Of a DNA stretch of 64,000 nucleotides, positions 17,099-58,935 are shown in pieces. Every line of letters begins with the position of its first letter. Positions within the stretch are counted from its first letter, which is position 1. The notes under the pieces were generated by a model, which ran no database searches, was not told where the DNA came from, and saw only the letters and a list, made by a program, of their open reading frames with translations. Source of the DNA: an uncultured Candidatus Saccharibacteria bacterium (GTDB taxonomy: Bacteria; Patescibacteriota; Minisyncoccia; Phycocordibacterales; XYD1-FULL-46-19); assembly GCA_964655995.1 (NCBI GenBank), contig CAZZPK010000003.1:22960-86959 (forward strand), read 5' to 3'. Position numbers and translations under genes: made by a program.

Positions 17099-17611
17099 AT
17101 GTCCACTTTGGAGTGGTTGCGGGAAGAGTTAGATAAGATCGACATGTCCGAAGTCGATTCGATCATTTTTCCAGAAGGCCCAGAGAAAGGTGAGGTCGAG
17201 GTCAGTGTTGTCGAGGATGCCGAGGTCAAGAAGATGTTTATTTTGATCAAACGTCTCCAAAACAAACTAGACGAGCTGGCTCTGGTTAATATCCCGATTT
17301 TACGGCGACAAATTAAGAAATTTTTTCTCGGTCAGGAGGGTGACAATGATGATGAACTGACCATTATTAACGCCAGGGCCGAGATTGATGTCTTGGGCCA
17401 ACAAATTTCCTTGGTCAAGAAGCTGAAATGGCTATCGATCAGAATGGGATTGACGCCGGAACAGCATATACTCACCTACCAATATGACAGTATCCGGATT
17501 GGTCGGGGTTGGAAGATTTTTGCCTACAATCATTCAGCTACTGTCTTGGTACCAACGGGTCTCGACGAATTAGCCGGTCTGATGAGTGAGGCACAGCCCA
17601 CTAGGCACTAA
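17099..17611 (+). CDS. hypothetical protein, paralog of the 18836..19315 gene
   Basis: 170 aa; the order WLREEL...KKMFILIKRLQ...RIGRGWKIFA is shared with the 18836 product (WLRLEL...KKLFVLSQQL...EIKAGWQVVA). Confidence 0.5.
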   Translation: MSTLEWLREELDKIDMSEVDSIIFPEGPEKGEVEVSVVEDAEVKKMFILIKRLQNKLDELALVNIPILRRQIKKFFLGQEGDNDDELTIINARAEIDVLGQQISLVKKLKWLSIRMGLTPEQHILTYQYDSIRIGRGWKIFAYNHSATVLVPTGLDELAGLMSEAQPTRH

Positions 17612-18835: not shown

Positions 18836-19315
18836 ATGTTCATTATTTTTGATTGGCTGAGGCTCGAGCTTGATTTAATCAACGCGGAGGAGATTGCTCG
18901 TTATGCCCCAAATGAGCCGGTCCGGGAGGATGATGTCCTTTTGTTGACTATCAAAGAGGATGAGCAGCTTAAAAAGTTGTTTGTCCTCTCGCAACAGCTC
19001 ATTGAGCTACTACCCGCGCCGCCTCTGGTCCGCGGTCAGCTGACTGTCGAGGAGATCAAGTTGATCAGTCGGCTTAGTTATCGCATCGCCTTTGTCGATG
19101 AGTTGATGAAGGCCGAGATCTGCGATCGGTTGTCTGGTGATCAGCTGGTCAACTTCCAGCAATACGCTGGCTTTGAGATCAAGGCTGGCTGGCAAGTGGT
19201 GGCGATGCCAGAGCCGGAGCAAGTCCCGGCGCCGGCGATCAGGCAAGAAATTCCCATTCGGCGCTCGCCCGACAGAGTTTTGGCCGATCGTCTTATCGAC
19301 CCCGTGTACCACTAA
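18836..19315 (+). CDS. hypothetical protein, paralog of the 17099..17611 gene
   Basis: 159 aa; ribosome-binding site gggggg; shares its motif order with the 17099 product. Confidence 0.5.
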   Translation: MFIIFDWLRLELDLINAEEIARYAPNEPVREDDVLLLTIKEDEQLKKLFVLSQQLIELLPAPPLVRGQLTVEEIKLISRLSYRIAFVDELMKAEICDRLSGDQLVNFQQYAGFEIKAGWQVVAMPEPEQVPAPAIRQEIPIRRSPDRVLADRLIDPVYH

Positions 19316-19391
19316 TGTCAAGGCGAGACATGGTAATCAAAGGAAATAAGAGATAAGGCGCCCGTGTCCCACGGGCGCCGTTTTTATTTTA

Positions 19392-19922
19392 TTAAAACCG
19401 CCAAGTTTTTTCTGTCTGCCAAATTTTATCGGCCAATCGGAACAAAGTTAAATTATCAAAATTAAGCTCAAAATGTGGCGGCGGTAAGGTTTGTAAATAG
19501 TTCCAAATAGCCGCTGATTGTTCCGAGGTCAAATGTCGGGCAATCGAGGCGTGTAATCTAAAATTATCCGGCAGAGGCTTTTTCTTTTCGCCAAAGTCTT
19601 TAATTTGGTCTATTATTTTTAAAATTTTATTATTCAATCCGTCGTCTTTTCTAACGTTTAAATAAATCGTTTTGCTGTCTAGTCCATAGCGATCAAAACC
19701 ATCAATATCTATAGGTAAAGAGGTTTGGCTGGAAGCAATATCACCCAGAGTTTTTTTAAAAGGATTTATGTTGTCGCTTTCAAACGGTGGCTTAAAAGTA
19801 AAGTGAGGCGGTATCCGTAAAGATAAATTAGCAATTCCAAACCGTGCCGCTAGGTCGGTAGTGATCTGTTGGTAATACTTTGCCGCCTCACCCTCAATTA
19901 AATACCCCACAAAATAGATCAT
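19392..19922 (-). CDS. thpR: 2H phosphoesterase (LigT/ThpR, RNA 2',3'-cyclic phosphodiesterase)
   Basis: Two H-x-T/S-x motifs (HFTFK and HASIARH); the start at 19922 (MIYFVGY) avoids overlap with the tRNA. Confidence 0.65.
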   Translation of the reverse strand: MIYFVGYLIEGEAAKYYQQITTDLAARFGIANLSLRIPPHFTFKPPFESDNINPFKKTLGDIASSQTSLPIDIDGFDRYGLDSKTIYLNVRKDDGLNNKILKIIDQIKDFGEKKKPLPDNFRLHASIARHLTSEQSAAIWNYLQTLPPPHFELNFDNLTLFRLADKIWQTEKTWRF

Positions 19923-19926
19923 AAGT

Positions 19927-20000
19927 TGGCTGCCGGTCAGGGACTCGAACCCCAATACCATCCTCCAGAGGGATGTGTCCTACCATTAGACGAACCGGCA
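19927..20000 (-). tRNA. tRNA-Gln (anticodon CUG)
   Basis: The reverse complement reads TGCCGGTTCGTCTAATGGTAGGAC...cTCTGga...GGTTCGAGTCCCTGACCGGCAGCCA, with a U1:A72 pair. Confidence 0.8.
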
Positions 20001-20141
20001 ATACCCTTAGACTATGCCATAAAATACTCAAGATTCCAAACTGTTATTTAGTTTATAATATGTCCATGGAACCATTCGCCCGAATCGTAGATGGGAAATA
20101 GGGGGGTGGCGTTTTGGCTCAAAGTGCTATAATAAGGGTAT

Positions 20142-21032
20142 ATGAAAAACGCCATTATTTTTATTGTCATTATTTTAATTATTGCCGGCGGGGCTTACTG
20201 GCTCTGGACTAATCAGGCGGCCGCTCCGGCGCCGGTAGAGCCGGGGGCAGGGGCTACCACCACGCCACCGGTAGTAGAGGACAAGACCAAGACGGTCATC
20301 GGTCAGTCGGTGGAGGGGAGGGACATTGTGGCTTACCACTTTGGCGAGGGGGCGGATCGCATCCTCTTTGTGGGCGGTATACACGGTGGCTACTCGTGGA
20401 ATACACCTCTCCTCGCTTACGAGCTGATGGATTATTTAAAAGCTAATCCTAGCGCCGTACCCAGCAATATTACGGTAACGGTGATCCCGGTGCTTAACCC
20501 CGATGGTCTCACTAAAGTGGTGGGTACCACGACCAAGTTTGCCGCCGCCGATGTGGCTAAAAGCAAAGAGACGCAGGTGGCTGGCCGCTTTAACGCTAAC
20601 GAGGTGGACTTAAATCGCAACTTTGACTGCGAGTGGCAACCGGAGGCCACTTGGCAGAGTAAAAAGGTGAGTGGCGGTAGCGCCGCCTTCTCCGAGCCGG
20701 AGAGCCGCGCCGTTAAAAATTATATCGAGGCTAATAAGCCCAAGGCCGCCGTGGTGTGGTACAGCGCGGCTGGCGGCGTCTTTGCCTCCAATTGTCGCAA
20801 TGGCGATGGGGTAATGCCCGAGACTTTGGCCCTCACTAACACCTACGCCAAAGCGGCCGGCTACAAGGCCTATGAGAGCTTTGACTTTTACGAGACGACG
20901 GGTGACATGGTCAATTGGCTCGCTAAAAATAATATCCCGGCGATCAGCGTCCTCCTCACTAACTACAGCGCTACCGAGTGGAGTAAAAATAAAGCGGGCA
21001 TTGAGTCGATCCTAAAATACTACGCTAAATAA
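20142..21032 (+). CDS. M14 zinc-carboxypeptidase-like protein, probably catalytically inactive
   Basis: Signal/TM N-terminus and the DLNRNF motif. The HxxE glutamate is replaced (HGGYSW), the second His ligand is Tyr (VVWYSAAG) and the catalytic Glu is Leu (ISVLLTN). Confidence 0.6.
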   Translation: MKNAIIFIVIILIIAGGAYWLWTNQAAAPAPVEPGAGATTTPPVVEDKTKTVIGQSVEGRDIVAYHFGEGADRILFVGGIHGGYSWNTPLLAYELMDYLKANPSAVPSNITVTVIPVLNPDGLTKVVGTTTKFAAADVAKSKETQVAGRFNANEVDLNRNFDCEWQPEATWQSKKVSGGSAAFSEPESRAVKNYIEANKPKAAVVWYSAAGGVFASNCRNGDGVMPETLALTNTYAKAAGYKAYESFDFYETTGDMVNWLAKNNIPAISVLLTNYSATEWSKNKAGIESILKYYAK

Positions 21033-21907
21033 TGTGGTCGTTACGTCAGCTCCTGATCGGTGCGCTCGCGGTGCTCATTTTGGCCGGCGGGGGCATTGGC
21101 GCGCTTAAGTGGTACCGGTCGCGCCAGGCGGCCGTTTTGCCGCCGGCTCCGGCCGTCGCCACCTCCACCAAGCAAGTTATCGGCTACTCGGTGCAAGGGC
21201 GAGCGATTGAGAGTTACACCTTTGGCACCGGCGCGACCAATCTTTTGTTTGTTGGCGGTGTGCACGGCGGCTATGAGTGGAATAGTGTTTTACTTGCCTA
21301 CGCGGTAATTGATTATTTAAACGCGAGCCCCGGCGTGGTGCCGGCTAATGTGAGCGTAACGGTGGTGCCTAATTTAAATCCCGACGGCGTCTACAAGGTG
21401 GTGGGTAAAGAGGGGCGCTTTGCGGCCGGCGACGTACCGGCCGACAAGGTCGTCCGCGCCGCCGGCCGCTTTAACTCCCGCGCCGTCGACCTAAACCGCA
21501 ACTTTGACTGCAAGTGGCAGGCCACCAGCACCTGGCAGGGGCGCGAGGTGAGCGCGGGCACGGCCGCCTTCTCCGAGCCCGAGGCGGCGGCCCTGCGCAA
21601 TTTGGTTTTAAAAATCAAGCCTAAAGCGGCTGTCTTTTGGCACTCGCAGGCCGGCGCCGTCTACGCCTCGGAGTGCGAGCAGGGGATACTGCCCGCCACT
21701 TTAACCTTAATGAGCACTTACGCCCAAGCCGCCGACTACCCGGCCGTTAAAACCTTTGACGCTTACGCTATCACCGGCGACGCCGAGGGCTGGCTGGCCT
21801 CCCTCGGCATCCCGGCCATCACGGTGGAATTTAAAACCCACGACTCTCCCGACCTCCCCCAAAACCTCGCTGGCGTTAAGGCTGTCCTTAACCTCTATCG
21901 CCCTTAA
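21032..21907 (+). CDS. M14 zinc carboxypeptidase-like protein with an intact catalytic set
   Basis: HGGYEW, FWHSQAG, DLNRNF and ITVEFKTH (catalytic-Glu position) line up with carboxypeptidase A landmarks. Confidence 0.65.
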   Translation: MWSLRQLLIGALAVLILAGGGIGALKWYRSRQAAVLPPAPAVATSTKQVIGYSVQGRAIESYTFGTGATNLLFVGGVHGGYEWNSVLLAYAVIDYLNASPGVVPANVSVTVVPNLNPDGVYKVVGKEGRFAAGDVPADKVVRAAGRFNSRAVDLNRNFDCKWQATSTWQGREVSAGTAAFSEPEAAALRNLVLKIKPKAAVFWHSQAGAVYASECEQGILPATLTLMSTYAQAADYPAVKTFDAYAITGDAEGWLASLGIPAITVEFKTHDSPDLPQNLAGVKAVLNLYRP

Positions 21908-21999: not shown

Positions 22000-22575
22000 A
22001 TGATAAAACAAGAGTCAAGTGAGAGATGGTGGTATCGGTTAATTAAGGTCATTTTTATAACAATGATCCTTTTTTCCTTACTAATTCCAGCTATAATTTT
22101 TCTTGAAAGTAAACCAGTTCTTGATAGATATGAAAGTCGCTTTAGTTTAAAGTGTGCTGACGGTAGGTTCCGAGGTGATTTTGATGGTTCTGATTTGGCG
22201 TACTATGATCTTAAATCTTTTGATAATTCTTATTACAATAAAGATAAATTTACCAATCTAGATAGAATGGCAAAGATTGCTTGCCATTATCAAGAAACTG
22301 GCGATGAATTAAAACCAATTGTAGAGTCAGAAAGTACTTTTGTCCCAACGGAAAAAAATTATGAGATTTTCTTGAGAAAACCATCTTATAGTAATTCGTG
22401 GGTAGAAACAATTAGCTACACAGTCTTAGCGTTTTTAGGGGTAATTCTATTTTTTAGCTTATTAAGAGCAATTTTCCTTTACATTATTTTTGGTGAAAAT
22501 TTTGGCAAAAATCTAGTATTTATATTTTGTTTATTTAAAAGTAAAAGAAAAATCATTGTTGAAAAACAAAAATAG
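22000..22575 (+). CDS. hypothetical two-TM membrane protein (AT-rich island)
   Basis: 191 aa with hydrophobic helices near both ends; about 30% GC. Confidence 0.45.
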   Translation: MIKQESSERWWYRLIKVIFITMILFSLLIPAIIFLESKPVLDRYESRFSLKCADGRFRGDFDGSDLAYYDLKSFDNSYYNKDKFTNLDRMAKIACHYQETGDELKPIVESESTFVPTEKNYEIFLRKPSYSNSWVETISYTVLAFLGVILFFSLLRAIFLYIIFGENFGKNLVFIFCLFKSKRKIIVEKQK

Positions 22576-22608
22576 GTATAAAAATAATAAATTAACTTAA
22601 AAGCTAAT

Positions 22609-22788
22609 ATGAATAAAGAATTTAGAGAAATAATAACAGGGTTAATAATTTTCGGTATAGTAATTCTATTAGCGTGGTTCTTGTTTGGTAGAGATATAGA
22701 ACCAGATTTATCTTCTAATTATAGTGGTTCATTAGAAGATCAATATTATGAGGGTGAAGGGTCTGGTCATCCGCTTTGGAATAATTAG
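22609..22788 (+). CDS. small single-TM protein (absent from the supplied ORF track)
   Basis: MNKEFREIITGLIIFGIVILLAWFLFG..., 59 aa, inside the AT-rich island. Confidence 0.3.
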   Translation: MNKEFREIITGLIIFGIVILLAWFLFGRDIEPDLSSNYSGSLEDQYYEGEGSGHPLWNN

Positions 22789-22836
22789 AGACCTCCGTCA
22801 AGGCGAGGCCTTGGCGCTGGTACGGTATGAACTTCT

Positions 22837-23592
22837 ATGATGAATATTGGAAGAAATGATCTGTGCCTATGTGGAAGTAATAAAAAATTCAAAAAGTGCT
22901 ATGGTGCAGTAAATAGTACTTGTTCCATTTTCTTGAAAGAACAGTGTCAAAAATTCATAAACGAGCACAACGAAAGAGAAAAATTTGTTTTTAGGTTTTT
23001 TAATGAGGTTCTTGAAGATACAAATGTAATTCTTCTCAAGAATAAAGAAGGAGATGACAAACTTCCTTTGCGGGTACAAATGATCATTGCCTTCAGTTTG
23101 ATAGATGTTCTTGGCAGTTATTGGTATGAGTATTTAGGTAAAACAGGAAAGACGAGCGAAAGAGCTCAAAAATGGTACGAACAGTTCTGTTTGAACGATA
23201 AAAATCCTAATCTGCTAACCCCTCAAGACTGGTCAAGAATTTCTAGTGATAGGTTATATCAATTTAGGAATTCACTCGTTCATTTCTTTGGTCTTTCAGA
23301 AAAAAGCGATGGGATTTACTTTGCATTAGCACCTAATAACCTTCCTGACGATAAACACAAGGATTGGCAAAAGCAGTTTAGTAAGAAAGGTGATGAGTCT
23401 TTTATCATCAAACCAGCTAACTTTTACGACCTAATCAGAGAAGGAGCGGTTTTGATGCTTAATGAGTGGTCGGAAGTTATCAAAAATGCTCAAACCAGCC
23501 CAGAGCATGAAAAAAGTCATATTGAGGGGATCGAGAGGATTTTTAACAAGATAAACAAAGAGGGTGCAGTCAAAGTAATGCAGGAAAAATGA
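22837..23592 (+). CDS. SEC-C motif protein with an uncharacterised C-terminal domain
   Basis: The N-terminal GRNDLCLCGSNKKFKKCYG matches the SecA C-terminal metal-binding (SEC-C) motif; the remaining roughly 220 aa are unrecognised; low GC. Confidence 0.55.
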   Translation: MMNIGRNDLCLCGSNKKFKKCYGAVNSTCSIFLKEQCQKFINEHNEREKFVFRFFNEVLEDTNVILLKNKEGDDKLPLRVQMIIAFSLIDVLGSYWYEYLGKTGKTSERAQKWYEQFCLNDKNPNLLTPQDWSRISSDRLYQFRNSLVHFFGLSEKSDGIYFALAPNNLPDDKHKDWQKQFSKKGDESFIIKPANFYDLIREGAVLMLNEWSEVIKNAQTSPEHEKSHIEGIERIFNKINKEGAVKVMQEK

Positions 23593-23709
23593 GAACCTTT
23601 GGTGGGGTGAGACCTTGAGTCTTTGAGGGACTATTTGGGAGGAGGGGAGGGTGGGGAGTTTTGGTATAATTGGGAGATGAGGTGACTGGAGGGGTGGTAA
23701 GATAGGGAT

Positions 23710-24525
23710 ATGACTAAAAATAAGATAATAATCCTAATGGTTTTGGTTGGGGTCGCCGTGGCGGTTGGGGTGGCGTTTTATACGGGCTACTTTTCTTACT
23801 CCACGACCTACTCATACACCGATGGCCTAGGTGAGAGTTGTAATGTTTTAGCTCTATCACTAAATGGCTACTTAACTACTTACTCGTCGGCCGAGGAGGC
23901 TGAGGCTACGGAGGTGGAGACAGCCTCGGAGGATATTGTTTACAGTATAGAGCAGGCCGATAAGGACGAGGAGATAAGGGGCGTGCTCTTGTTGGTGGAC
24001 TCGGATGGTGGTTCCGGTGTAGCGGGTGAGGAGATCGCCAATGCTTTAAAAAGATTAAGTAAACCTAATGTGGCGGTAATACGGGGCTCAGGTCTCTCGG
24101 CGGCCTACTGGGCAGCCACGGGGGCCGACAGGGTGTTTGCCTCCAGCCTCTCGGATGTGGGCAGTATTGGGGTAACATCCTCTTATCTTGATGAATCTCA
24201 GGTTAAACAAAAAGAGGGTTATCGTTTTATTGAGTTAGCCTCTGGTAAATACAAAGATGTGTGGAATCCGGAAAAGCCGATCACTGAGGAGGATAAGGCG
24301 ATAATCATGGAAGGTATTTTAAAGATGCACGACATTTTTGTTAAGCAGGTGGCGACTAATCGTAATTTAGATCTGGAGGAGGTTAAAAAGTTGGCCAATG
24401 GTTTAAGTTACATCGGCGAGGATGCTTTAAAGCTCGGTTTGATCGATGAGATCGGCGATATGTCCACCGCCACTAAATACTTAGAGAGTCAGATCGGCGA
24501 GGAGGCGGAGATCTGCTGGCAATAA
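23710..24525 (+). CDS. sppA: signal peptide peptidase SppA (S49, short 36K type)
   Basis: N-terminal TM plus a ClpP/crotonase-like core (VLLLVDSDGGSG...GSGLSAAYWAA). Confidence 0.7.
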   Translation: MTKNKIIILMVLVGVAVAVGVAFYTGYFSYSTTYSYTDGLGESCNVLALSLNGYLTTYSSAEEAEATEVETASEDIVYSIEQADKDEEIRGVLLLVDSDGGSGVAGEEIANALKRLSKPNVAVIRGSGLSAAYWAATGADRVFASSLSDVGSIGVTSSYLDESQVKQKEGYRFIELASGKYKDVWNPEKPITEEDKAIIMEGILKMHDIFVKQVATNRNLDLEEVKKLANGLSYIGEDALKLGLIDEIGDMSTATKYLESQIGEEAEICWQ

Positions 24526-51806: not shown

Positions 51807-52046
51807 ATGAAGAAAATTGTCTTGTTTTTTGTGGTAGTAATTCTGGTAATGGTGTTTTACACTGGTATTGAAAAGGAGCCAGCTTACCAGTATCACATTA
51901 CCACCTGGGATGGTCGTGAGGCTATCGGTAAATTGAATCGCGATCAAACCTATACATTTTTTCGATTTTATAGGGTGGGAGAAGTGGTTTACATCGACCA
52001 GGAGATTGCCACTTTTCCAGCTGCAGAAGCGGCCAAACTCCATTGA
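51807..52046 (+). CDS. small single-TM protein (cassette 2)
   Basis: Ribosome-binding site aggagg; MKKIVLFFVVVILVMVFYTG... Confidence 0.4.
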   Translation: MKKIVLFFVVVILVMVFYTGIEKEPAYQYHITTWDGREAIGKLNRDQTYTFFRFYRVGEVVYIDQEIATFPAAEAAKLH

Positions 52047-52106
52047 CCCGCCAACGGACAACGACCCGAATCGTCTGTCGCGAGGCGGGTTTGTTGTTTT
52101 TATTTT
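52047..52106 (+). terminator. conserved intrinsic terminator module, copy B
   Basis: cccgccaacggacaacgacccgaatcgtctgtcgcgaggcgggtttgttgtttttatttttc; about 90% identical to copy A. Confidence 0.6.
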
Positions 52107-52161
52107 TCTATATTTTAGTCAAGTTGCCCCCAAGGCCATAATCGGCCATAATGGCGGGGAA

Positions 52162-53175
52162 ATGGCTATCAACTTTAAACCTAAGTTGGGCATCGATTTG
52201 GGGACGGCTAACACCCTGGTTTTTGTGCCGGGGCAGGGGATAGTTTTAAACGAGCCCTCGGTGGTGGCGATCTCCGAGATCGATAATAAGGTGGTGGCGG
52301 TAGGGGTGGAGGCCAAAGAGATGGTGGGCAAAACGCCCGACAGCATCATCGCTTACCGGCCGATGAAGGATGGCGTCATTGCCGATTATCGCGTTACCGA
52401 GGTGATGCTTAAATATTATATTTCCAAAGCGCTCGGCAAATGGAATATTTTTAAACCCGATGTCTTAGTCTCGGTGCCGGCCGGCGTCACCTCTACCGAG
52501 CGGCGCGCGGTGATCGAAGCGGCGGTTAAAGCCGGCGCTAAAAATGCTTATGTGGTTAAGGAGCCGATTTTGGCGGCGATTGGCGCGGGCATACCCATTT
52601 ACGAGGCGCATGGCCACATGGTTGTTGACATTGGCGGCGGTACCACCGATGTGGCGGTAATTTCTTTGGGCGGTATTGTCGCCTCGACCTCGGTCAAGTA
52701 TGCCGGCAATAAAATCGATCAGGCGATTGCCGATTACATCAAAAAAACTTTCAATTTGGCAATTGGCGACAAAACGGCCGAGGAGGTTAAAATCGCCATC
52801 GGCAGCGCGGTGCCGGTAGAGGAGGAGCTGGTTTACACTATTAAAGGGCGCGACTTTATGACCGGCCTGCCGCGCTCGGTAGAGGTTAAAACTAATGAGA
52901 TTTGTCGGGCCATCGACAATGAGCTCCGCGAGATGATCAAGGCGATTAAAACTGTCTTCCATGACACGCCGCCCGAGCTCTCGTCCGACATTATTGACCG
53001 GGGCATTACCATGACCGGCGGCTCGTCCCAATTGCGCCATTTGCCCGAGCTGGTGTATCGCCGTACCGGCGTTAAGGCGGTGTTGGCCCCCGACCCGCTC
53101 TATTGCGTGGTTAAGGGGACGGGCATTGCGCTTGAGCATTTGGATACTTACAAAAAAAGCATTATCTCAAAGTAA
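52162..53175 (+). CDS. mreB: rod shape-determining protein MreB (paralog 1)
   Basis: GIDLGTANTLVFV and the actin-fold motifs. Confidence 0.85.
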   Translation: MAINFKPKLGIDLGTANTLVFVPGQGIVLNEPSVVAISEIDNKVVAVGVEAKEMVGKTPDSIIAYRPMKDGVIADYRVTEVMLKYYISKALGKWNIFKPDVLVSVPAGVTSTERRAVIEAAVKAGAKNAYVVKEPILAAIGAGIPIYEAHGHMVVDIGGGTTDVAVISLGGIVASTSVKYAGNKIDQAIADYIKKTFNLAIGDKTAEEVKIAIGSAVPVEEELVYTIKGRDFMTGLPRSVEVKTNEICRAIDNELREMIKAIKTVFHDTPPELSSDIIDRGITMTGGSSQLRHLPELVYRRTGVKAVLAPDPLYCVVKGTGIALEHLDTYKKSIISK

Positions 53176-53176
53176 A

Positions 53177-53878
53177 ATGGATTCTTTATCGATGCTTGCA
53201 ACCGGCGATTGGCATCATGCTTACATTTTAAAAGGCGATCGGGTTTTGGTCCGGGAGGCTTTGCTCCGGCTGATCAGCGAGCGTTGGCTGGGCGGGGCGC
53301 CGGTCACCAGTTGCCCCGACTTCCATTTGCGGGAGTACGAGCGCTTGAGTATTGAGGCCAGCCGGGAGCTTGCGGTTTTGCAGTCGCGTCAGCCGCTGGC
53401 CGGAGGCAAAAAGTTTTTTGTCATCATTTGTTCGGCTTTATTGCGGGAGGCCCAAAACGCTTTACTTAAGACGCTGGAGGAGCCGGCCGGCGCTGCCCAT
53501 TTCTTTTTTATTATCGAGGGGCAAACCGAGATTTTACCCACTTTGCTTTCGCGGGTCAGGGTAATTGAGACCGGCCTGTGGCCTGGCGAGGGAGGCGAGT
53601 TATATCGTTTGGCCCAACAATTTTTAGCAGCGTCGCCGACCAAACGCTTGGCGCTCATTGAGCCGCTCTTGGCCGAGAGCGATCATCTTTTGCGTCGGAC
53701 CCAGCTCGAGCGCTGGCTCGCTTTGTTGGAGAAGGAGCTGGCCCCCAATATGACTCCCCGGGCCGGCGAGGCGGTGGCGCACGCGCGGTATTTGCTCACG
53801 ATACCGGGCAGCGTCCCTAAATTACTGCTCGAGGAGCTTGCACTGGTCCTGCCGGTAGCTTACAATCAAACTAAATAA
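53177..53878 (+). CDS. holB: DNA polymerase III delta' subunit-like
   Basis: ALLKTLEEPAGAAHFFFII and the LLSRVRV motif. Confidence 0.55.
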   Translation: MDSLSMLATGDWHHAYILKGDRVLVREALLRLISERWLGGAPVTSCPDFHLREYERLSIEASRELAVLQSRQPLAGGKKFFVIICSALLREAQNALLKTLEEPAGAAHFFFIIEGQTEILPTLLSRVRVIETGLWPGEGGELYRLAQQFLAASPTKRLALIEPLLAESDHLLRRTQLERWLALLEKELAPNMTPRAGEAVAHARYLLTIPGSVPKLLLEELALVLPVAYNQTK

Positions 53879-53884
53879 AATCTA

Positions 53885-54439
53885 ATGTCTTATTCTTTTA
53901 CGTCTTTTAGTGGGCGGACGGCGGCGATTGCCGATTGGTTTAATCAAGAGTCGGCGGCGCTGCGCACCGGCCGAGCCACGCCGGCCTTGCTCGATAATGT
54001 TGTCGTGGAGTCATACGGCACTATGACACCACTTAAGCATGTGGCCAATATCTCCATTGAGGATGCTCGGACGCTCCGGATTACTCCCTGGGATAAAAGC
54101 CAAGTCAAAGCCATTGAGACAGCCATTGCCGCCGCCAACTTGGGGGTCGGCGCGGTGGCTGATGGCGCCAGTTTGCGGCTTAATTTTCCGCCGCTCACCG
54201 AGGAGCGGCGCAAACTGCTGGTTAAGACCTTAAAAACCAAATTGGAGGAAGCCAAAATTTCCATCCGCCAAGAGCGGGAGAAGGTGTTGTCTGACTTGGC
54301 CGGCAAGCGCAAAGAGGGCCAGATCAGCGAGGATGACGAGCGCCGCCATAAAACCGAATTGCAAAAATTAGTCGATGAGGCCAATGACAAGCTGGAGGCG
54401 GCGGCGACCAAGCGCGAGTCTGAGATTTTAAACGAATGA
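53885..54439 (+). CDS. frr: ribosome recycling factor
   Basis: RTGRATPALLD and SIEDARTLRITPWD. Confidence 0.85.
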   Translation: MSYSFTSFSGRTAAIADWFNQESAALRTGRATPALLDNVVVESYGTMTPLKHVANISIEDARTLRITPWDKSQVKAIETAIAAANLGVGAVADGASLRLNFPPLTEERRKLLVKTLKTKLEEAKISIRQEREKVLSDLAGKRKEGQISEDDERRHKTELQKLVDEANDKLEAAATKRESEILNE

Positions 54440-55539
54440 CCGTTGTTATTTTTTTAATCATTTTGGCATTACTCGTCTTTGTCCACGAGTTGGGCCATTT
54501 TGCAGTGGCTAAGTGGTCGGGGATCAGGGTCGACGAGTTTGGTCTCGGCTTTCCGCCGCGCTTGGTTAGTTTTAAACGGGGCGATACTTTATATTCGCTT
54601 AATTTGATCCCGTTTGGTGGTTTTGTCCGGATCTTTGGCGAGACACCGGAGGAGTTGCCGGAGGGCGTTATGCCGGCCGGTGACAGTTTGGTAGCCAAAT
54701 CCAAATTAACTCAAGCGGCTGTTTTGGTAGCTGGTGTGGTGGCCAATATGATTTTAGCCTGGCTTTTTTTGGCGCTGGCTTTGGGTATCGGTGTGCCGAT
54801 GAGTGTTGATGATTTGCCGGCCGGCGCCCAAGTGGCGGGTTCGCACTTGACCATTTTAACCGTGGTGCCCGGTACGCCGGCCGATGAGGCCGGCCTCAAA
54901 GTGGGCGACAAAATTATCGCCCTTGGTCGCGGCGGGGAGGAGCTCGCGCCAACTGGCGCCGATGAGGCGATTAAATTTATCAGCCGAGCAAACGACCCGC
55001 TCGTGATTACCATTGAGCGTCCGACCGGCGAGCGGGAAAATATCTCGGCCACGCCGGCCACCGGCATTATTACCGAGGCTCCGGGACAGCCAGCTCTCGG
55101 CGTAGTTTTAGGGCAAGTGGGAGTAACCTCCTTTGCCTGGTGGCAAGCGCCATGGCAGGCGCTTAAAATGACCGGCTCATTAACGGTATTAACGGTCAAT
55201 GGTTTGTGGCAATTATTACTCCAAGCGGTTGCAGGCGAGGCCTCGCTTAGCGCTGTGACCGGACCGGTCGGCCTGGCCGGTTTGGTGGGCGATGCGCGGA
55301 CGCTCGGCTTTGCTTATTTGCTGTCTTTTGTCGCTTTTATTTCCATCAATTTGGCGGTGCTTAATTTGATCCCGTTCCCGGCGCTCGACGGCGGACGGCT
55401 GTTGTTTGTGTTGATCGAGTCGATCAAGGGCTCGGCGATTAAGCCGCAAGTCGCCAATATTTTAAATTTACTCGGTTTTATTTTACTGATCAGCTTGATG
55501 CTGGTCGTCACCTGGCACGACATCAGCCGATTGTTTTAG
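54436..55539 (+). CDS. rseP: RIP site-2 zinc metalloprotease RseP
   Basis: HELGHF (HExxH), a PDZ-like segment and the C-terminal LDGG motif. Confidence 0.8.
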   Translation: MTVVIFLIILALLVFVHELGHFAVAKWSGIRVDEFGLGFPPRLVSFKRGDTLYSLNLIPFGGFVRIFGETPEELPEGVMPAGDSLVAKSKLTQAAVLVAGVVANMILAWLFLALALGIGVPMSVDDLPAGAQVAGSHLTILTVVPGTPADEAGLKVGDKIIALGRGGEELAPTGADEAIKFISRANDPLVITIERPTGERENISATPATGIITEAPGQPALGVVLGQVGVTSFAWWQAPWQALKMTGSLTVLTVNGLWQLLLQAVAGEASLSAVTGPVGLAGLVGDARTLGFAYLLSFVAFISINLAVLNLIPFPALDGGRLLFVLIESIKGSAIKPQVANILNLLGFILLISLMLVVTWHDISRLF

Positions 55540-55582
55540 GTACTTTTTGACCAAAGTCGGTTTTGGGTTAAGATAGGAGGAT

Positions 55583-56836
55583 ATGTTGCAATCCAAGCTG
55601 TTTACCAAAGTCCGCCGAGAGGACCCCAAAGACGAGCTGGCTAAAAACGCCAAACTCCTGATCCGCGGAGGTTTTATTGCCAAGTCGCTGGCGGGGGTTT
55701 ATGTGCTCTTGCCTTTGGGCTTGCGGGTGCTCGATAAAATCAGTCAGATTATTCGCGAGGAGATGGACAAAATCGGTGGCCAGGAGCTCCGTTTGGCCGC
55801 GCTCCAGGATCCAGCGGTGTGGCAGGCCTCCGGCCGCTGGAGCGACGAGGTGGTCGACAATTGGTTTAAAACCAAATTAAAAAATGATACCGAGCTCGGT
55901 TTGGGTTTTACCCACGAGGAGCCACTGGCCAAATTGATGGCTGATCATATCCAGTCATACCGCGACCTGCCGGCGTATGTCTATCAAATCCAGACCAAGT
56001 TCCGCAATGAGGCGCGGGCCAAAAGTGGCATTTTGCGCGGGCGCGAGTTTTTGATGAAGGATTTGTACTCATTTAATGTCGACCAGGCCGGCCTGGACGC
56101 TTTTTACGATCAAGCCAAAGAGGCTTATCGACGAGTGTTTGACCGGGTGGGCATCGGGGCGCAAACTTTTTTAACTTTTGCTTCAGGTGGTACCTTCAGC
56201 AAATATAGCCACGAATTCCAAGCGGTATGCCCGGCCGGCGAGGACACCATTTACTTGTCGCGCGATAAAGAGATCGCGATCAACGAGGAGGTTTACGGCC
56301 CTGATGTTTTGGCCGAACTTGGTCTTGAGGAACAAGAATTGGTTAAAGAGACGGCGATCGAGGTTGGTAATATTTTTAAATTAGGTACCAAATATTCTGA
56401 GGCTCTGGGTTTGACTTACAGCACCGAGACCGGCGAGCGCCTACCGGTGGTGATGGGCAGTTACGGCCTAGGGGTAACGCGGCTGCTTGGCACTATTGCC
56501 GAGTTGACCGGCACCGATAGCGGCCTTAATTGGCCCAAGGCGGTGGCACCGTTTAAAGTCCATTTACTTGCTTTGGGCAATGATGAGGCGGTACACGCCA
56601 AGTCTCGCGCTTTATACGAAACGTTGGTCGCCCAAGGGGCAGAAGTGCTTTTTGATGACCGCGAACTTAGCGCCGGGGAAAAATTTGGCGATGCCGATTT
56701 GATTGGCATTCCAGTGCGCTTGGTGTTAAGTGCCAAAACCGCCGCGCTTGAGGCGGTGGAGTGGTTTGACCGCTCTCAAGGCAAGACGGAGTCGGTGCCC
56801 ATTAGCGAGGTACCGGCCCGCATTTTAGCTTTATGA
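55583..56836 (+). CDS. proS: prolyl-tRNA synthetase (short form)
   Basis: IRGGFI...AGVYVLLPLG and class II motifs. Confidence 0.75.
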   Translation: MLQSKLFTKVRREDPKDELAKNAKLLIRGGFIAKSLAGVYVLLPLGLRVLDKISQIIREEMDKIGGQELRLAALQDPAVWQASGRWSDEVVDNWFKTKLKNDTELGLGFTHEEPLAKLMADHIQSYRDLPAYVYQIQTKFRNEARAKSGILRGREFLMKDLYSFNVDQAGLDAFYDQAKEAYRRVFDRVGIGAQTFLTFASGGTFSKYSHEFQAVCPAGEDTIYLSRDKEIAINEEVYGPDVLAELGLEEQELVKETAIEVGNIFKLGTKYSEALGLTYSTETGERLPVVMGSYGLGVTRLLGTIAELTGTDSGLNWPKAVAPFKVHLLALGNDEAVHAKSRALYETLVAQGAEVLFDDRELSAGEKFGDADLIGIPVRLVLSAKTAALEAVEWFDRSQGKTESVPISEVPARILAL

Positions 56837-56853
56837 TTAAACGCTGGTATGAA

Positions 56854-57888
56854 ATGTTTTCCCACGATCTGGGGATCGACTTGGGCACAGCCACCACCTT
56901 AATTTACGTTAAGGGGCACGGTATTGTCTTGCTTGAGCCCTCGATTGTGGCTTTAAATCAAAAAACCGGCCGGGTGGTGGCGGTGGGGGCCGATGCCAAC
57001 AAAATGATCGGCCGGACGCCGGCGCACATCAGCGCGGTTAAGCCACTCTCCGGCGGCGTGATCTCCAATTTTGAGGTGGCCGAGGAGATGCTCGCTTATT
57101 TTATGAAAAAGGCCGTGGCGCAAATACCCGGTAAAATATTTTTCCGCCCGCGGGTGGTGATCAGCGTCCCTTCGGGCATTACCAATGTTGAGCGTCGCGC
57201 AGTGCGCGACGCGGCGCGCAATGCCGGCGCCCGCACCGTCCATATTATTGAAAAGCCGATGGCCGCCGCTTTCGGCGTCCGTTTGCCGGTGCATGATCCG
57301 GTGGGGACGATGTTGGTAGATATCGGCGGCGGTACCGTCGATATTGCGGTGTTGTCCTTGGGCGGTATCGTCAAGTCGCGCAATCTCCATGTGGCCGGCG
57401 ATCATCTTAATCAGGATATTATTTCTTATATCCGGGACGAGTTTAAAATTTTATTGGGCGAGCGGACGGCCGAGGATGTCAAAATGGCCATTGGCTCGGT
57501 GATTAAGGGCAAAGAGCCGGAGGAGGCCTCAATTCGCGGCCGCGATCTGGTGACCGGCCTGCCGCGCGAGGTTATCGTTACCGACAGCGATATCCGCGAG
57601 GCGATCATGCCCTCGGTTAATTTATTAATTGAGGCGATCAAAGAGGTGTTGGAGACCACGCCGCCGGAGGTGATCGCCGACATCATGCATCGAGGGCTCA
57701 TTTTAGTGGGTGGCGGGGCTTTGTTGACGGGTCTCCCTGCATTGCTCGAGAAAGAGCTTGGCCTGCCGGTAATCCTGGTTGACGAGCCGACGACGGCCGT
57801 AGTCCGCGGCACCGGAGTTATCCTTGAGGATATTAACGCTTATCGTGATATTCTACTTGATAATGAAGACCAATTACCAGCGCGATAA
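56854..57888 (+). CDS. mreB: rod shape-determining protein MreB (paralog 2)
   Basis: GIDLGTATTLIYV and the actin fold. Confidence 0.8.
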   Translation: MFSHDLGIDLGTATTLIYVKGHGIVLLEPSIVALNQKTGRVVAVGADANKMIGRTPAHISAVKPLSGGVISNFEVAEEMLAYFMKKAVAQIPGKIFFRPRVVISVPSGITNVERRAVRDAARNAGARTVHIIEKPMAAAFGVRLPVHDPVGTMLVDIGGGTVDIAVLSLGGIVKSRNLHVAGDHLNQDIISYIRDEFKILLGERTAEDVKMAIGSVIKGKEPEEASIRGRDLVTGLPREVIVTDSDIREAIMPSVNLLIEAIKEVLETTPPEVIADIMHRGLILVGGGALLTGLPALLEKELGLPVILVDEPTTAVVRGTGVILEDINAYRDILLDNEDQLPAR

Positions 57889-58669
57889 TTTAACCAAATT
57901 TTTTTTAAAACAGCGGGCAAGGCAATGGGCATTGATTGCCGGGCTAGCGGTTTTGATTTTGGTATTGGGCTGGGCCGGATGGCGGCTGTTTGGCGTCTTG
58001 GCTTGGTGGTCGCGGCCGCTGTGGCTGGCCGGCGCGGCGGCCGATGCCCGGATTGATGTTTTGGCCGAGGTGGGCAAAACGCGCCGGACGCTGATTGCGG
58101 AGAATCGCTCATTTAAAGCCGAGACTGATGAGTTAAAAACCCAATTGGTCGTTAAAGATGCTGAGCTGGCCAAGTGGCGGGCACTCGCGTCAGCTTGGGG
58201 GCGGGCCGACTCGGCTCGCTCCGGTTTGGCCGCTTTGGTAATCAGCCAGCCTAATCACTCACCTTACGATACTTTGATTATCGATTTGGGCCGTGATAAT
58301 GCCACTAAGGAGATTGCGCCCGGCATGGCTGTCGCCCATGACGATGTTTTGCTGGGCCGGGTAACGCGAGTCAGCGGCCAGACCAGCCAAGTGCGTTTGT
58401 TGTCCTCGCCGGGAGAGGAAACGGCCGTTTTGGTCGGCGACAATCGGATCCCGGCGCTCGCCACCGGGCGCGGCGGCGGCAACTTTATTATCTCTTTGCC
58501 GCGCACGGTGGAGGTTAAGGTGGGCGACGTGATCGCCGTCCCGACGACCACGCCGTCGGTGCTGGGAGTGGTCGGAGCGGTCAATAATGATCCTAAAAAT
58601 CCATTCCAGACCATTTTATTCCGTTCGCCGCTTAATATTTTTGAATTGCCGGCCGTAACCGTCCTATGA
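57863..58669 (+). CDS. mreC: rod shape-determining protein MreC
   Basis: TM, coiled coil, then a beta-barrel domain (LIIDLGRDNATKEIAPGMAV). Confidence 0.65.
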   Translation: MKTNYQRDNLTKFFLKQRARQWALIAGLAVLILVLGWAGWRLFGVLAWWSRPLWLAGAAADARIDVLAEVGKTRRTLIAENRSFKAETDELKTQLVVKDAELAKWRALASAWGRADSARSGLAALVISQPNHSPYDTLIIDLGRDNATKEIAPGMAVAHDDVLLGRVTRVSGQTSQVRLLSSPGEETAVLVGDNRIPALATGRGGGNFIISLPRTVEVKVGDVIAVPTTTPSVLGVVGAVNNDPKNPFQTILFRSPLNIFELPAVTVL

Positions 58670-58935
58670 TTTGGCGACATTTTATTACCCTGATTATTTT
58701 TTTGTCTCTGGCTTGGGGGCCATGGTGGCTCTCGGCCGCTCTGCTCGGGGCGGCGATATTAACACTCCCTTATTATTTTGAAGCGGCGTTTTTGGTTTTG
58801 GTGTTTGAGTGGTGGTATCGGACGGCTCCGGCCGGCGAGGCTGTTGTTTGGCCGTGGCTTGCGGTGGCTACTTTGGCGCTGGTGGTGATAATCAATAAGA
58901 TCTATGAACATCTTCGATTTTTTGCGGCGGCGTAG
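58666..58935 (+). CDS. mreD: MreD-like small membrane protein
   Basis: Its position between mreC and the PBP2 gene, and hydrophobic helices. Confidence 0.4.
   Translation: MIWRHFITLIIFLSLAWGPWWLSAALLGAAILTLPYYFEAAFLVLVFEWWYRTAPAGEAVVWPWLAVATLALVVIINKIYEHLRFFAAA

Follow-up and report, generated by a model that had tools for sequence, protein, structure and literature searches.

Why would a bacterium keep, directly upstream of a gene for an apparently intact zinc carboxypeptidase, a paralog in which three catalytic residues have been replaced? This question is raised by two overlapping genes, P1 and P2, in the window (the whole 64,000-nucleotide stretch of DNA that was analysed), which comes from a peptidoglycan-building bacterium of the Parcubacteria (Patescibacteria). 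A preliminary description had read the two as tandem M14 carboxypeptidase-like paralogs, and this reading stands: both open reading frames and all of the motifs quoted for them, including the common DLNRNF, lie where it had placed them, and both products score above the Pfam cutoff for PF00246.

The gene pair and its products

The features of the pair are as follows.

20142..21032, forward strand: P1, open reading frame of 296 aa, the catalytically degenerate M14 paralog (family A)
21032..21907, forward strand: P2, open reading frame of 291 aa, the canonical M14 Zn carboxypeptidase paralog (family B)
21030..21034, forward strand: TAATG junction, in which the P1 stop and the P2 start share one base
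20125..20133, forward strand: extended -10-like element TGCTATAAT, read by eye, 8 nt 5' of the P1 start codon

Aligned by BLASTP from end to end, P1 and P2 show 49% identity (E = 9e-103), and they score 71 and 65 bits, respectively, against the Peptidase_M14 profile (PF00246, cutoff 21.6 bits), which places both in the M14 family with its funnelin alpha/beta-hydrolase-like fold. An AF2 model of P1 likewise has the M14 fold (pLDDT 83), and structure searches of the PDB did not separate CPB, CPT and MpaA as the nearest fold. The one-base TAATG overlap implies translational coupling, and on this basis P1 and P2 would be co-expressed. The TGCTATAAT element is a possible promoter, from which a leaderless or very short-leader P1 mRNA would be made; a scan for promoter and terminator consensus sequences around the pair returned nothing convincing, did not list this element and gave no good -35.

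P1 consists of an N-terminal membrane anchor (~aa 3-22), a low-complexity linker and an M14 domain (~aa 49-296), and P2 has the same arrangement of N-terminal anchor, linker and M14 domain (~aa 44-291). The N-terminal hydrophobic helix recurs in both families; in 99% of family A and 95% of family B members its N-terminal flank has more positive charge than its C-terminal one, and by this positive-inside signal the M14 domains of both proteins are predicted to face the outside of the cell. This leaves P1 with a cytoplasmic part of just three residues, MKN, before its TM helix.

Catalytic residues in P1 and P2

To place the catalytic landmarks in the numbering of bovine carboxypeptidase A (CPA; H69, E72, H196, E270), we aligned the proteins with CPA by profile-profile comparison (hhalign) and with CPB and MpaA by HMMER. 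The bovine CPA sequence used here passes 11 numbering checks. Because the direct P1-CPA hhalign alignment ends near P1 residue 199, the assignments of Y207 and L271 rest on alignments of P1 with P2. The motifs that carry the landmarks are:

20382..20399, forward strand: P1 HGGYSW, aa 81-86; H81 (= H69) kept, S85 in place of the Zn-ligand Glu (= E72)
20583..20624, forward strand: P1 GRFN...DLNRNF, with DLNRNF at aa 156-161; carboxylate-binding R149, N158 and R159 kept
20751..20774, forward strand: P1 VVWYSAAG, aa 204-211; Y207 in place of the second Zn-ligand His (= H196)
20943..20960, forward strand: P1 ISVLLT, aa 268-273; L271 in place of the general-base Glu (= E270)
21263..21280, forward strand: P2 HGGYEW, aa 78-83; H78 (= H69) and E82 (= E72)
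21488..21505, forward strand: P2 DLNRNF, aa 153-158; N155/R156 (= N144/R145)
21635..21655, forward strand: P2 FWHSQAG, aa 202-208; H204 (= H196), second Zn ligand
21818..21835, forward strand: P2 ITVEFK, aa 263-268; E266 (= E270), catalytic general base

The downstream paralog had been described as intact, and P2 does carry H78, E82, H204 and E266 in the four CPA columns, thereby retaining the second Zn ligand and the general base, with N155/R156 and Y245 (= Y248) forming the equivalent of the carboxylate clamp (N144, R145, Y248). P2 thus looks like an intact Zn carboxypeptidase. We call its activity putative because, in the alignments, H78 and E82 pair with H69 and E72 but stand one residue further apart (HxxxE rather than the canonical HxxE), and because comparisons with the PDB yielded no characterised or solved member of this HGGYEW subfamily, in which the motif is invariant among the best 120 family B homologs (120/120).

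The upstream paralog had been said to lack three landmarks, and the alignments bear this out, with S85, Y207 and L271 occupying the E72, H196 and E270 columns. An alignment that moved the catalytic residues elsewhere in P1 was sought using BLASTP, HMMER against PDB chains, hhalign and a 144-sequence MAFFT alignment; none did so, and the four methods agree on the catalytic columns that each covers. P1 is therefore a homolog with the M14 fold and not an M14 peptidase: the second Zn-ligand His and the general-base Glu are gone, as is the Zn-ligand Glu in this lineage, which should leave P1 unable to act as a metallopeptidase. It nevertheless keeps the residues that clamp the C-terminal carboxylate of a substrate (N158/R159/Y250).

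Similar replacements run through the relatives of P1. In essentially all readable sequences among its best 120 homologs, the H196 column holds Y or F and the E270 column a hydrophobic residue (mostly L, with V or I now and then), and none has H at the former or E at the latter; the best 120 homologs of P2 are canonical. In the set of 72 family A and 72 family B orthologs, the H196 column is Y (66/72) or F (5/72) in family A and H (72/72) in family B, and the E270 column is L (69/72), I (2) or V (1) in family A and E (72/72) in family B. The E72 column of family A is mixed (E 43/72, S 22, A 3, with G also seen), so that the Glu is kept in ~60-70% of P1 orthologs (43/72 and 83/120). As read from these columns, the H196 to Y/F and E270 to L losses are family-wide and the E72 loss lineage-specific. 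The earlier claim that the Zn-ligand Glu was lost thus holds for P1 itself, where S85 replaces it, but not as a trait of the family. The carboxylate-binding residues are constant or nearly so in both families: R149 and R159 are invariant, N158 is found in 71/72 and Y250 in 70/72 of the family A orthologs, the equivalents of R149, N158 and R159 are invariant in family B along with Y245, and an R127-like Arg and the H69 equivalent are invariant in both.

Since H81 is invariant and Y207 strongly conserved, one might ask whether P1 is still an enzyme with a non-canonical active site that uses another metal, other residues or another reaction, all the more because Csd4, with its variant first-ligand motif QxxExnH, shows that M14 enzymes accept change at the first ligand (PMC4220969). 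We consider this very improbable. At the general-base position 72/72 orthologs carry Leu, Ile or Val, the presence of Phe in the H196 column of some orthologs means that a hydroxyl is not required there, and the E72 column drifts between E, S, A and G. In addition, family A has gained no acidic or nucleophilic residue of its own at any of the six switch columns, and the confidence of the P1 AF2 model falls in the active-site loops.

Selection on the degenerate paralog

The disappearance of three catalytic residues in this genome could also mark P1 as a functionless duplicate on its way to becoming a pseudogene, an explanation to which we give almost no credence. Its reading frame is intact, and the pseudogene reading is ruled out by a dN/dS of 0.09-0.15, by orthologs at 61-92% identity across many Parcubacteria lineages and by conservation above that of the active paralog.

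Purifying selection on P1 is stronger than on P2. The dN/dS of family B is 0.18-0.21, pairwise identity is 66.8% within family A vs 64.2% within family B, and A is more conserved than B in 71% of genome pairs. The preliminary description had seen in P1 a pseudoenzyme kept as a partner of the active paralog and had pointed to related genomes as the place to look; the degenerate paralog is indeed conserved across Parcubacteria, and its family-wide degeneracy, its low dN/dS and its constant placement upstream of the live copy all speak for its being kept. A dead copy under tighter constraint than the live one marks an important step in envelope handling by these reduced-genome bacteria.

A coupled pair with a proposed role in cell-wall trimming

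Relatives of the pair are encoded on at least 567 species-level genome contigs, and a large part of Parcubacteria has the dead-live pair almost without exception. A dead A gene is followed directly by a live B gene on the same strand at 78/80 genome loci; contig ends truncate the remaining 2, so that the tandem is found at 78/78 informative loci. The identical 1-nt overlap is present in 44/79 A/B junctions, and most of the others have a gap of <=15 nt. A search for dead-live fusion proteins, as evidence of interaction, yielded none: P0322 and P0336, the only proteins with two M14 domains that it turned up, are live-live, with canonical domains of different subfamilies. In a mirror-tree comparison the divergence of A correlated weakly with that of B (r = 0.34), as expected from shared phylogeny.

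This arrangement bears on whether P1 works with P2 or by itself. On its own, P1 would be a lectin-like receptor, anchor or sensor that binds peptidoglycan or peptides and has no contact with P2, with the tandem reflecting pathway co-regulation only. Such a role would fit the retention of carboxylate-binding residues after loss of the catalytic ones, the receptor-like appearance of Chloroflexota proteins that carry a dead M14 domain together with a kinase or zinc ribbon (see below), and the existence of a dead copy, P0382, that has no neighbouring M14 gene. It would also fit the column of CPA S1' position 255, which is E/D in family B and V/T/A in family A; because of this difference P1 may bind another ligand than P2. 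Even so, we regard an independent role as unlikely: the shared 1-nt overlap and the unbroken adjacency are tighter than is usual for pathway co-regulation and typical of the subunits of a complex, and P1 has no cytoplasmic domain through which to signal.

The preliminary description had suggested peptidoglycan as a possible target, and for the substrate of P2 the circumstantial evidence points the same way. Among canonical relatives there are fusions with M23 and LysM (P0252), with SLT (P0365, P0383) and with LysM (P0322), and a gene for a VanY carboxypeptidase lies within 4 kb of the pair in 22/78 loci; it is these fusions of intact relatives and the nearby VanY that indicate a wall substrate. 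The window itself encodes elongasome components, with two MreB, MreC and PBP2, as well as FtsQ and a PG_binding_1 protein, and contains no VanY.

Alternatively, the pair might act beyond the cell's own wall, in scavenging of environmental or host peptides or in processing of surface proteins, with P1 as a substrate-capture subunit. Parcubacteria have reduced genomes and are thought to depend on scavenging, which would suit such a role, and in the window no peptidoglycan gene adjoins the pair, whose immediate neighbours encode a LigT-like protein, an OMP decarboxylase, an S49 peptidase, a SEC-C protein and a PD-(D/E)XK nuclease. Against this stand the fusions of the canonical relatives, all of them wall-related, the recurrence of VanY nearby, and the fact that MpaA, a murein tripeptide amidase, is the sole NCBIfam match. 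A target outside the wall therefore seems quite unlikely to us.

We conclude that P1 is probably a non-catalytic partner of P2 in cell-wall peptide trimming. In the model that we favour, P1 and P2 would be co-transcribed and translationally coupled, each forming a single-pass, membrane-anchored external M14 domain. P2, a member of a compact, MpaA-sized M14 subfamily, would most likely trim C-terminal residues off peptidoglycan stem peptides. P1, made in a fixed ratio with P2, would be a non-catalytic subunit next to it at the external surface of the membrane. By binding P2 itself, or else a ligand such as a peptide or peptidoglycan, it would target the live enzyme, gate it or activate it. Taken as a whole, this model is somewhat better than an even bet; it builds on the paralogy, the loss of catalytic residues, the selection, the synteny and coupling, and the topology signals, to which it adds a proposed physical interaction, substrate and direction of regulation.

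Origin of the dead paralog and comparison with known systems

P1 would have arisen from an old duplication of the same gene that gave P2. We count as support for this the intact single-copy gene P0284, which has no tandem partner and whose product is 47% identical to P1 and 43% to P2. In a larger neighbour-joining tree, which carries no support values, A forms one clade beside B. A related degenerate M14 family exists in Chloroflexota, where 119/119 members are degenerate; here the dead M14 domain lies outside a TM helix, with a cytoplasmic zinc ribbon or Ser/Thr kinase on the same protein, and in 4/4 loci examined the dead gene is followed by a canonical M14 gene. A neighbour-joining tree with 200 bootstraps leaves a common origin of this family (dead2) and family A undecided (support 0.41 for monophyly of A, 0.075 for dead2 with A, 0.985 for dead2 alone).

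The Chloroflexota proteins allow a broader and still tentative reading, which we hold to be doubtful: the dead M14 domain might be an ancient receptor for muropeptides or for the C-termini of peptides, common to Patescibacteria and Chloroflexota and in every case accompanied by a live M14 carboxypeptidase. The Chloroflexota form would then report wall status across the membrane via its kinase or zinc ribbon, and in Parcubacteria, where the cytoplasmic module would have been lost, the live enzyme would depend on the dead M14 domain as a subunit for allosteric control or targeting. If true, this would make a new M14-based class of wall sensors and regulators, comparable to PASTA kinases and LytM activators. 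The kinase and zinc-ribbon fusions in any case suggest that dead M14 domains are more widely employed for binding outside the cell.

Inactive M14 proteins are familiar from eukaryotes. In CPXM1 and CPXM2, in AEBP1/ACLP and in domain 3 of carboxypeptidase D, catalytic residues are missing, and a role as binding modules is assumed. Unlike P1, these inactive M14B proteins have discoidin or transthyretin-like domains and no tandem active partner, and are not wall-related. PMC6718098 names CPXM2 as an M14 member. Our search of the literature, the coverage of which was incomplete, found no published description of the pair in Patescibacteria or of an M14-based dead regulator.

Among bacterial M14 enzymes, MpaA (PDB 4AXV, 5HXD) is cytoplasmic and soluble and has the HxxE motif, whereas P1 and P2 appear to be membrane-anchored and external and P2 has HGGYEW; against the MpaA equivalog NF007897 they score 35.1 and 41.3 bits, respectively, far from its cutoff of 157. 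Csd4/Pgp1 is an extracytoplasmic M14 enzyme that, after an LD-carboxypeptidase has acted, converts un-crosslinked muramyl tripeptide to dipeptide and needs its general-base Glu (PMC4220969). It resembles P2 in the kind of reaction that we propose, but the pair has neither its QxxExnH motif nor its combination of carboxypeptidase, beta-barrel and Ig-like domains.

The control of wall hydrolases by dead paralogs is well established for M23/LytM proteins such as EnvC, NlpD and Csd2. In EnvC, NlpD and SpoIIQ, dead peptidase domains activate the machinery that remodels the wall or partner it structurally (PMC5053510); they differ from P1 in fold and in regulating unrelated amidases or forming channels, with no active partner of their own family. 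The closest parallel is Csd1-Csd2 of Helicobacter pylori, a 1:1 M23/LytM heterodimer encoded by adjacent genes, in which a peptidoglycan peptidase pairs with a paralog whose set of metal ligands is incomplete and only one site holds Zn (PMC5053510). Both systems are tandem, membrane-associated and extracytoplasmic dead-live paralog pairs, and P1 shows what would be expected of a Csd2-like partner: a degenerate active site under purifying selection, adjacency to the live gene and, judging from the overlap, co-expression with it. P1 and P2, however, belong to the M14 and not the M23 LytM clan and fold, and have none of the extra helical dimerisation domains of Csd1-Csd2; that pair is a heterodimer, whereas a P1-P2 heterodimer is a proposal. 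As two small ectodomains, P1 and P2 form a system amenable to in vitro work.

The degenerate and the canonical M14 genes

The two M14 genes lie in tandem on the forward strand, and are given here together with the codons for the first zinc motif of each:

20142..21032, + strand: P1, the upstream, catalytically degenerate paralog, 296 aa
21032..21907, + strand: P2, the downstream, canonical paralog, 291 aa
20382-20399, + strand: HGGYSW, first zinc motif of P1
21263-21280, + strand: HGGYEW, first zinc motif of P2

The stop codon of P1 and the start codon of P2 overlap by one base (TAATG), and the proteins are 49% identical over their full length (BLASTP, E = 9e-103). Both match Pfam PF00246 Peptidase_M14 (71 bits for P1 and 65 bits for P2, against a cutoff of 21.6), while their sole NCBIfam match, murein tripeptide amidase MpaA, lies below threshold. 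Every motif that the preliminary description had cited for the pair was found where it had placed it. The window holds no third M14 gene, and the immediate neighbours of the pair are unrelated housekeeping genes.

Several features of the surrounding DNA were recorded alongside. An extended -10-like element, TGCTATAAT, lies at 20125-20133, 8 nt 5' of the P1 ATG and without a -35 element, a position that suggests a leaderless or near-leaderless P1 transcript. Further upstream, a strong 10-bp GC-rich hairpin with a T-run on the + strand (19357-19379) separates the convergent ORFs 18836-19315 (+) and 19392-19961 (-) and is probably a terminator. Two small ORFs without a Pfam match (17099-17611 and 18836-19315) flank an OMP decarboxylase gene and form a pair of distant paralogs at 28% identity (E = 9e-8), each beginning with an (E/D)WLR-ELD-I motif. 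Directly 3' of P2, at 22001-24000, GC content falls steeply, to 0.364 compared with roughly 0.50-0.55 elsewhere, in a stretch that encodes a 191-aa membrane ORF without a family match (22000-22575) and a SEC-C-motif protein (22837-23592) and that may be acquired DNA.

To place the catalytic columns of P2 we used HMMER alignments to solved CPB, CPA (carboxypeptidase A) and MpaA chains and a profile-profile alignment of the P2 family with bovine CPA, which were concordant; the bovine reference sequence matches 11 textbook residue numbers. The columns of P1 come from the P1/P2 pairwise alignment and a 144-sequence alignment, since the direct alignment of the P1 family with CPA stops near P1 residue 199.

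Table. Catalytic and substrate-binding columns, in bovine CPA numbering
H69, Zn ligand: P2 H78; P1 H81
E72, Zn ligand: P2 E82; P1 S85
N144/R145, substrate carboxylate binding: P2 N155/R156; P1 N158/R159
H196, Zn ligand: P2 H204; P1 Y207
Y248, substrate binding: P2 Y245; P1 Y250
E270, general base: P2 E266; P1 L271

The proposal that P1 lacks three catalytic landmarks was upheld in both alignments, which put S85, Y207 and L271 in the E72, H196 and E270 columns. P1 thus retains the first His and the carboxylate-binding residues but has lost both remaining metal ligands as well as the general base. A rival reading, a cryptic enzymatic activity of P1, is unlikely. In both paralogs the first motif, HGGY(E/S)W, has a His-Glu spacing of four residues (HxxxE) as opposed to the three usual for M14 (HxxE). 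This spacing is subfamily-wide, HGGYEW being present in all of the best 120 homologs of family B (the live, P2-type orthologs of Parcubacteria), and the subfamily is without any solved structure.

Maintenance of the degenerate paralog and of the tandem

Homologs of P1 number more than 5000; the best 120 are 61-92% identical to it and span many lineages of Parcubacteria, among them Vogel-, Taylor-, Zambryski-, Campbell-, Lloyd- and Liptonbacteria. Wherever these 120 were readable, the H196 column held Y or F and the E270 column a hydrophobic residue (within SVLL or close variants of it); as first motif, 83 had HGGYEW and 31 had HGGY(S/G/A)W. The best 120 P2 homologs, besides their invariant HGGYEW, have WHS and TVE(L/F) in nearly all cases. 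Across 72 genomes in which both genes are complete, pairwise identity over the catalytic domain is 66.8% in family A (the dead, P1-type orthologs) as against 64.2% in family B, and in 71% of genome pairs it is family A that is better conserved. A codon comparison with two close relatives gave dN/dS values of 0.09-0.15 in family A and 0.18-0.21 in family B. A pseudogene is excluded by the conservation across Parcubacteria lineages, the low dN/dS and an identity above that of the live family: P1 is a maintained protein, not a decaying copy. The earlier suggestion that the dead paralog is kept was therefore borne out in relatives, with a degenerate family widespread in Parcubacteria.

No more than six columns reach 90% conservation within each family yet differ in residue between the two, and the H196 and E270 columns are among them. 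At the E72 column of the same 72 genomes, family B has E in 72/72, and family A has E in 43, S in 22, A in 3 and a few others, a drift of the pattern expected after metal binding ceases to matter. In the window's own lineage the change from E to S is recent: a relative at 79% identity (L090) still has HGGYEW, and one at 94% (L088) has HGGYSW.

Scanning GTDB species-representative genomes yielded at least 567 contigs that encode relatives, from which the best 80 were taken. In 78 of these 80 loci the very next gene after A is B, in the same orientation, and the other two contigs end at A; the identical one-base overlap occurs at 44/79 A-B junctions, most others being no more than 15 nt apart. 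A divergent A-type gene (P0253, HE..YL) likewise has a canonical M14 gene 5 nt downstream. A solitary gene without a tandem partner (P0284, L084:5001-6146), which has an intact catalytic set and is 47% identical to P1 and 43% to P2, may resemble the pre-duplication or an unduplicated state.

Predicted location, substrate and joint function

Members of both families start with a strongly hydrophobic helix, whose N-flank carries more positive charge than its C-flank in 99% of family A and 95% of family B and which is followed by a Pro/Thr-rich linker; because of this charge bias and linker, the M14 domains of both families are predicted to lie outside the membrane. Both families also share an invariant pair of Cys residues (C163/C218 in P1, C160/C215 in P2), consistent with a putative external disulfide.

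The wall genes in the window (two MreB, MreC, PBP2, an FtsQ-type POTRA protein and a PG_binding_1 protein) show that the organism builds a cell wall. Within 52006-60586 lie MreB (52006-53175 and 56833-57888), MreC (57824-58669) and PBP2/MrdA (58904-60586), with RseP and ProS interspersed, so that this Parcubacteria genome encodes a full elongasome.

Among P2-related representatives at 50% identity, 113/150 are canonical at all four catalytic columns, and canonical relatives include fusions to wall modules, namely M23 with LysM (P0252) and SLT lytic transglycosylase (P0365, P0383). P0322 joins an HGGYE-type M14 domain to a second, HGDE-type M14 domain and LysM, both M14 domains being canonical; P0336 likewise carries two canonical M14 domains of different subfamilies in one polypeptide, HGGYE-type then HGDE-type. 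The commonest neighbour within 4 kb is a VanY-family carboxypeptidase (PF02557; 22/78 related loci), followed in L001-L080 by a Gmad2/Germane-domain protein (16 loci) and an ABC transporter (14). VanY is absent from the 64-kb window, and neither of the other two adjoins P1/P2 there. Because of the fusions and the VanY neighbours, a role for P2 in trimming peptidoglycan stem peptides is suggested, circumstantially; a rival reading is a substrate other than peptidoglycan. In Parcubacteria, the column aligned to CPA 255, in the S1' pocket, holds E or D in 68/72 B and V, T or A in 70/72 A members. If this alignment holds, B would tentatively favour an amine-bearing C-terminal residue (a diamino acid, for instance), and the S1' pocket of A may have been remodelled.

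The best-supported reading joins these points. P2 would be a Zn carboxypeptidase tethered to the membrane on its outer side, with peptidoglycan stem peptides as its probable substrate. P1 would be its catalytically dead, strongly selected paralog, made in fixed ratio with it through translational coupling and serving P2 as a subunit without catalysis of its own, in binding, targeting or regulation. A rival is that P1 binds a ligand without involving P2.

A Chloroflexota parallel and known systems

The P2 representative search returned a second degenerate group (P0377, P0381, P0382), for which a dedicated search gave 870 hits at E <=1e-10, annotated as Chloroflexota including Anaerolineae, Promineifilaceae and Ardenticatenaceae. 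None of the 119 members examined (P0394-P0512) has the canonical catalytic set; H-A-(E/Q)-L is typical of the four columns, and the R/N/R residues are retained. Many have an N-terminal zinc-ribbon, a TM helix and then the dead M14 domain. In P0377 a kinase domain takes the place of the zinc-ribbon:

L081:6001-9628 (metagenome contig Ga0568860_0000103; also L082 and L083): P0377, 812 aa, in which a complete N-terminal Ser/Thr kinase precedes a TM helix and, C-terminally, the degenerate M14 domain (H-A-E-L at the catalytic columns)

A canonical 393-aa M14 gene (HGGYEW / FWHS / SVELRNH) lies 8 nt downstream of P0377, and a dead gene precedes a canonical H-E-H-E M14 gene in all four inspected loci (L081, L091, L092 and L093), L092 having two dead copies ahead of its live gene; the dead copy P0382 is without an M14 neighbour. 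This shows that dead M14 domains of the subfamily are used repeatedly as predicted extracellular modules beside a live enzyme, and those of Chloroflexota are wired to predicted cytoplasmic signalling-type domains.

Neighbour-joining bootstrap values gave weak support, at 0.41 for the monophyly of family A and 0.075 for its grouping with the Chloroflexota family. The two families do agree in A-type states at several of the switch columns, IPAISVLL and TNWL being examples. In some rooted trees of the bacteria, Patescibacteria stand beside Chloroflexota, an adjacency that would fit a common origin of the dead M14 families.

In chemistry, the nearest known enzymes are MpaA and the Csd4/Pgp1 DL-carboxypeptidases (PMC4220969 for Csd4/Pgp1), and P1 and P2 tested as members of neither. 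In the literature, of which our coverage was incomplete, we found no description of the P1/P2 pair or of a bacterial M14 pseudoenzyme partner. The nearest precedent in logic is Csd1-Csd2 of H. pylori, an adjacent-gene live/dead pair, but of M23, which forms a 1:1 heterodimer with Zn in Csd1 only (PMC5053510); wider parallels are the degenerate LytM factors EnvC, NlpD and SpoIIQ. A dead paralog that regulates a wall hydrolase is an already known concept. Its M14 version, the near-universality of this in Parcubacteria and the kinase- or zinc-ribbon-linked counterpart in Chloroflexota appear to be new.
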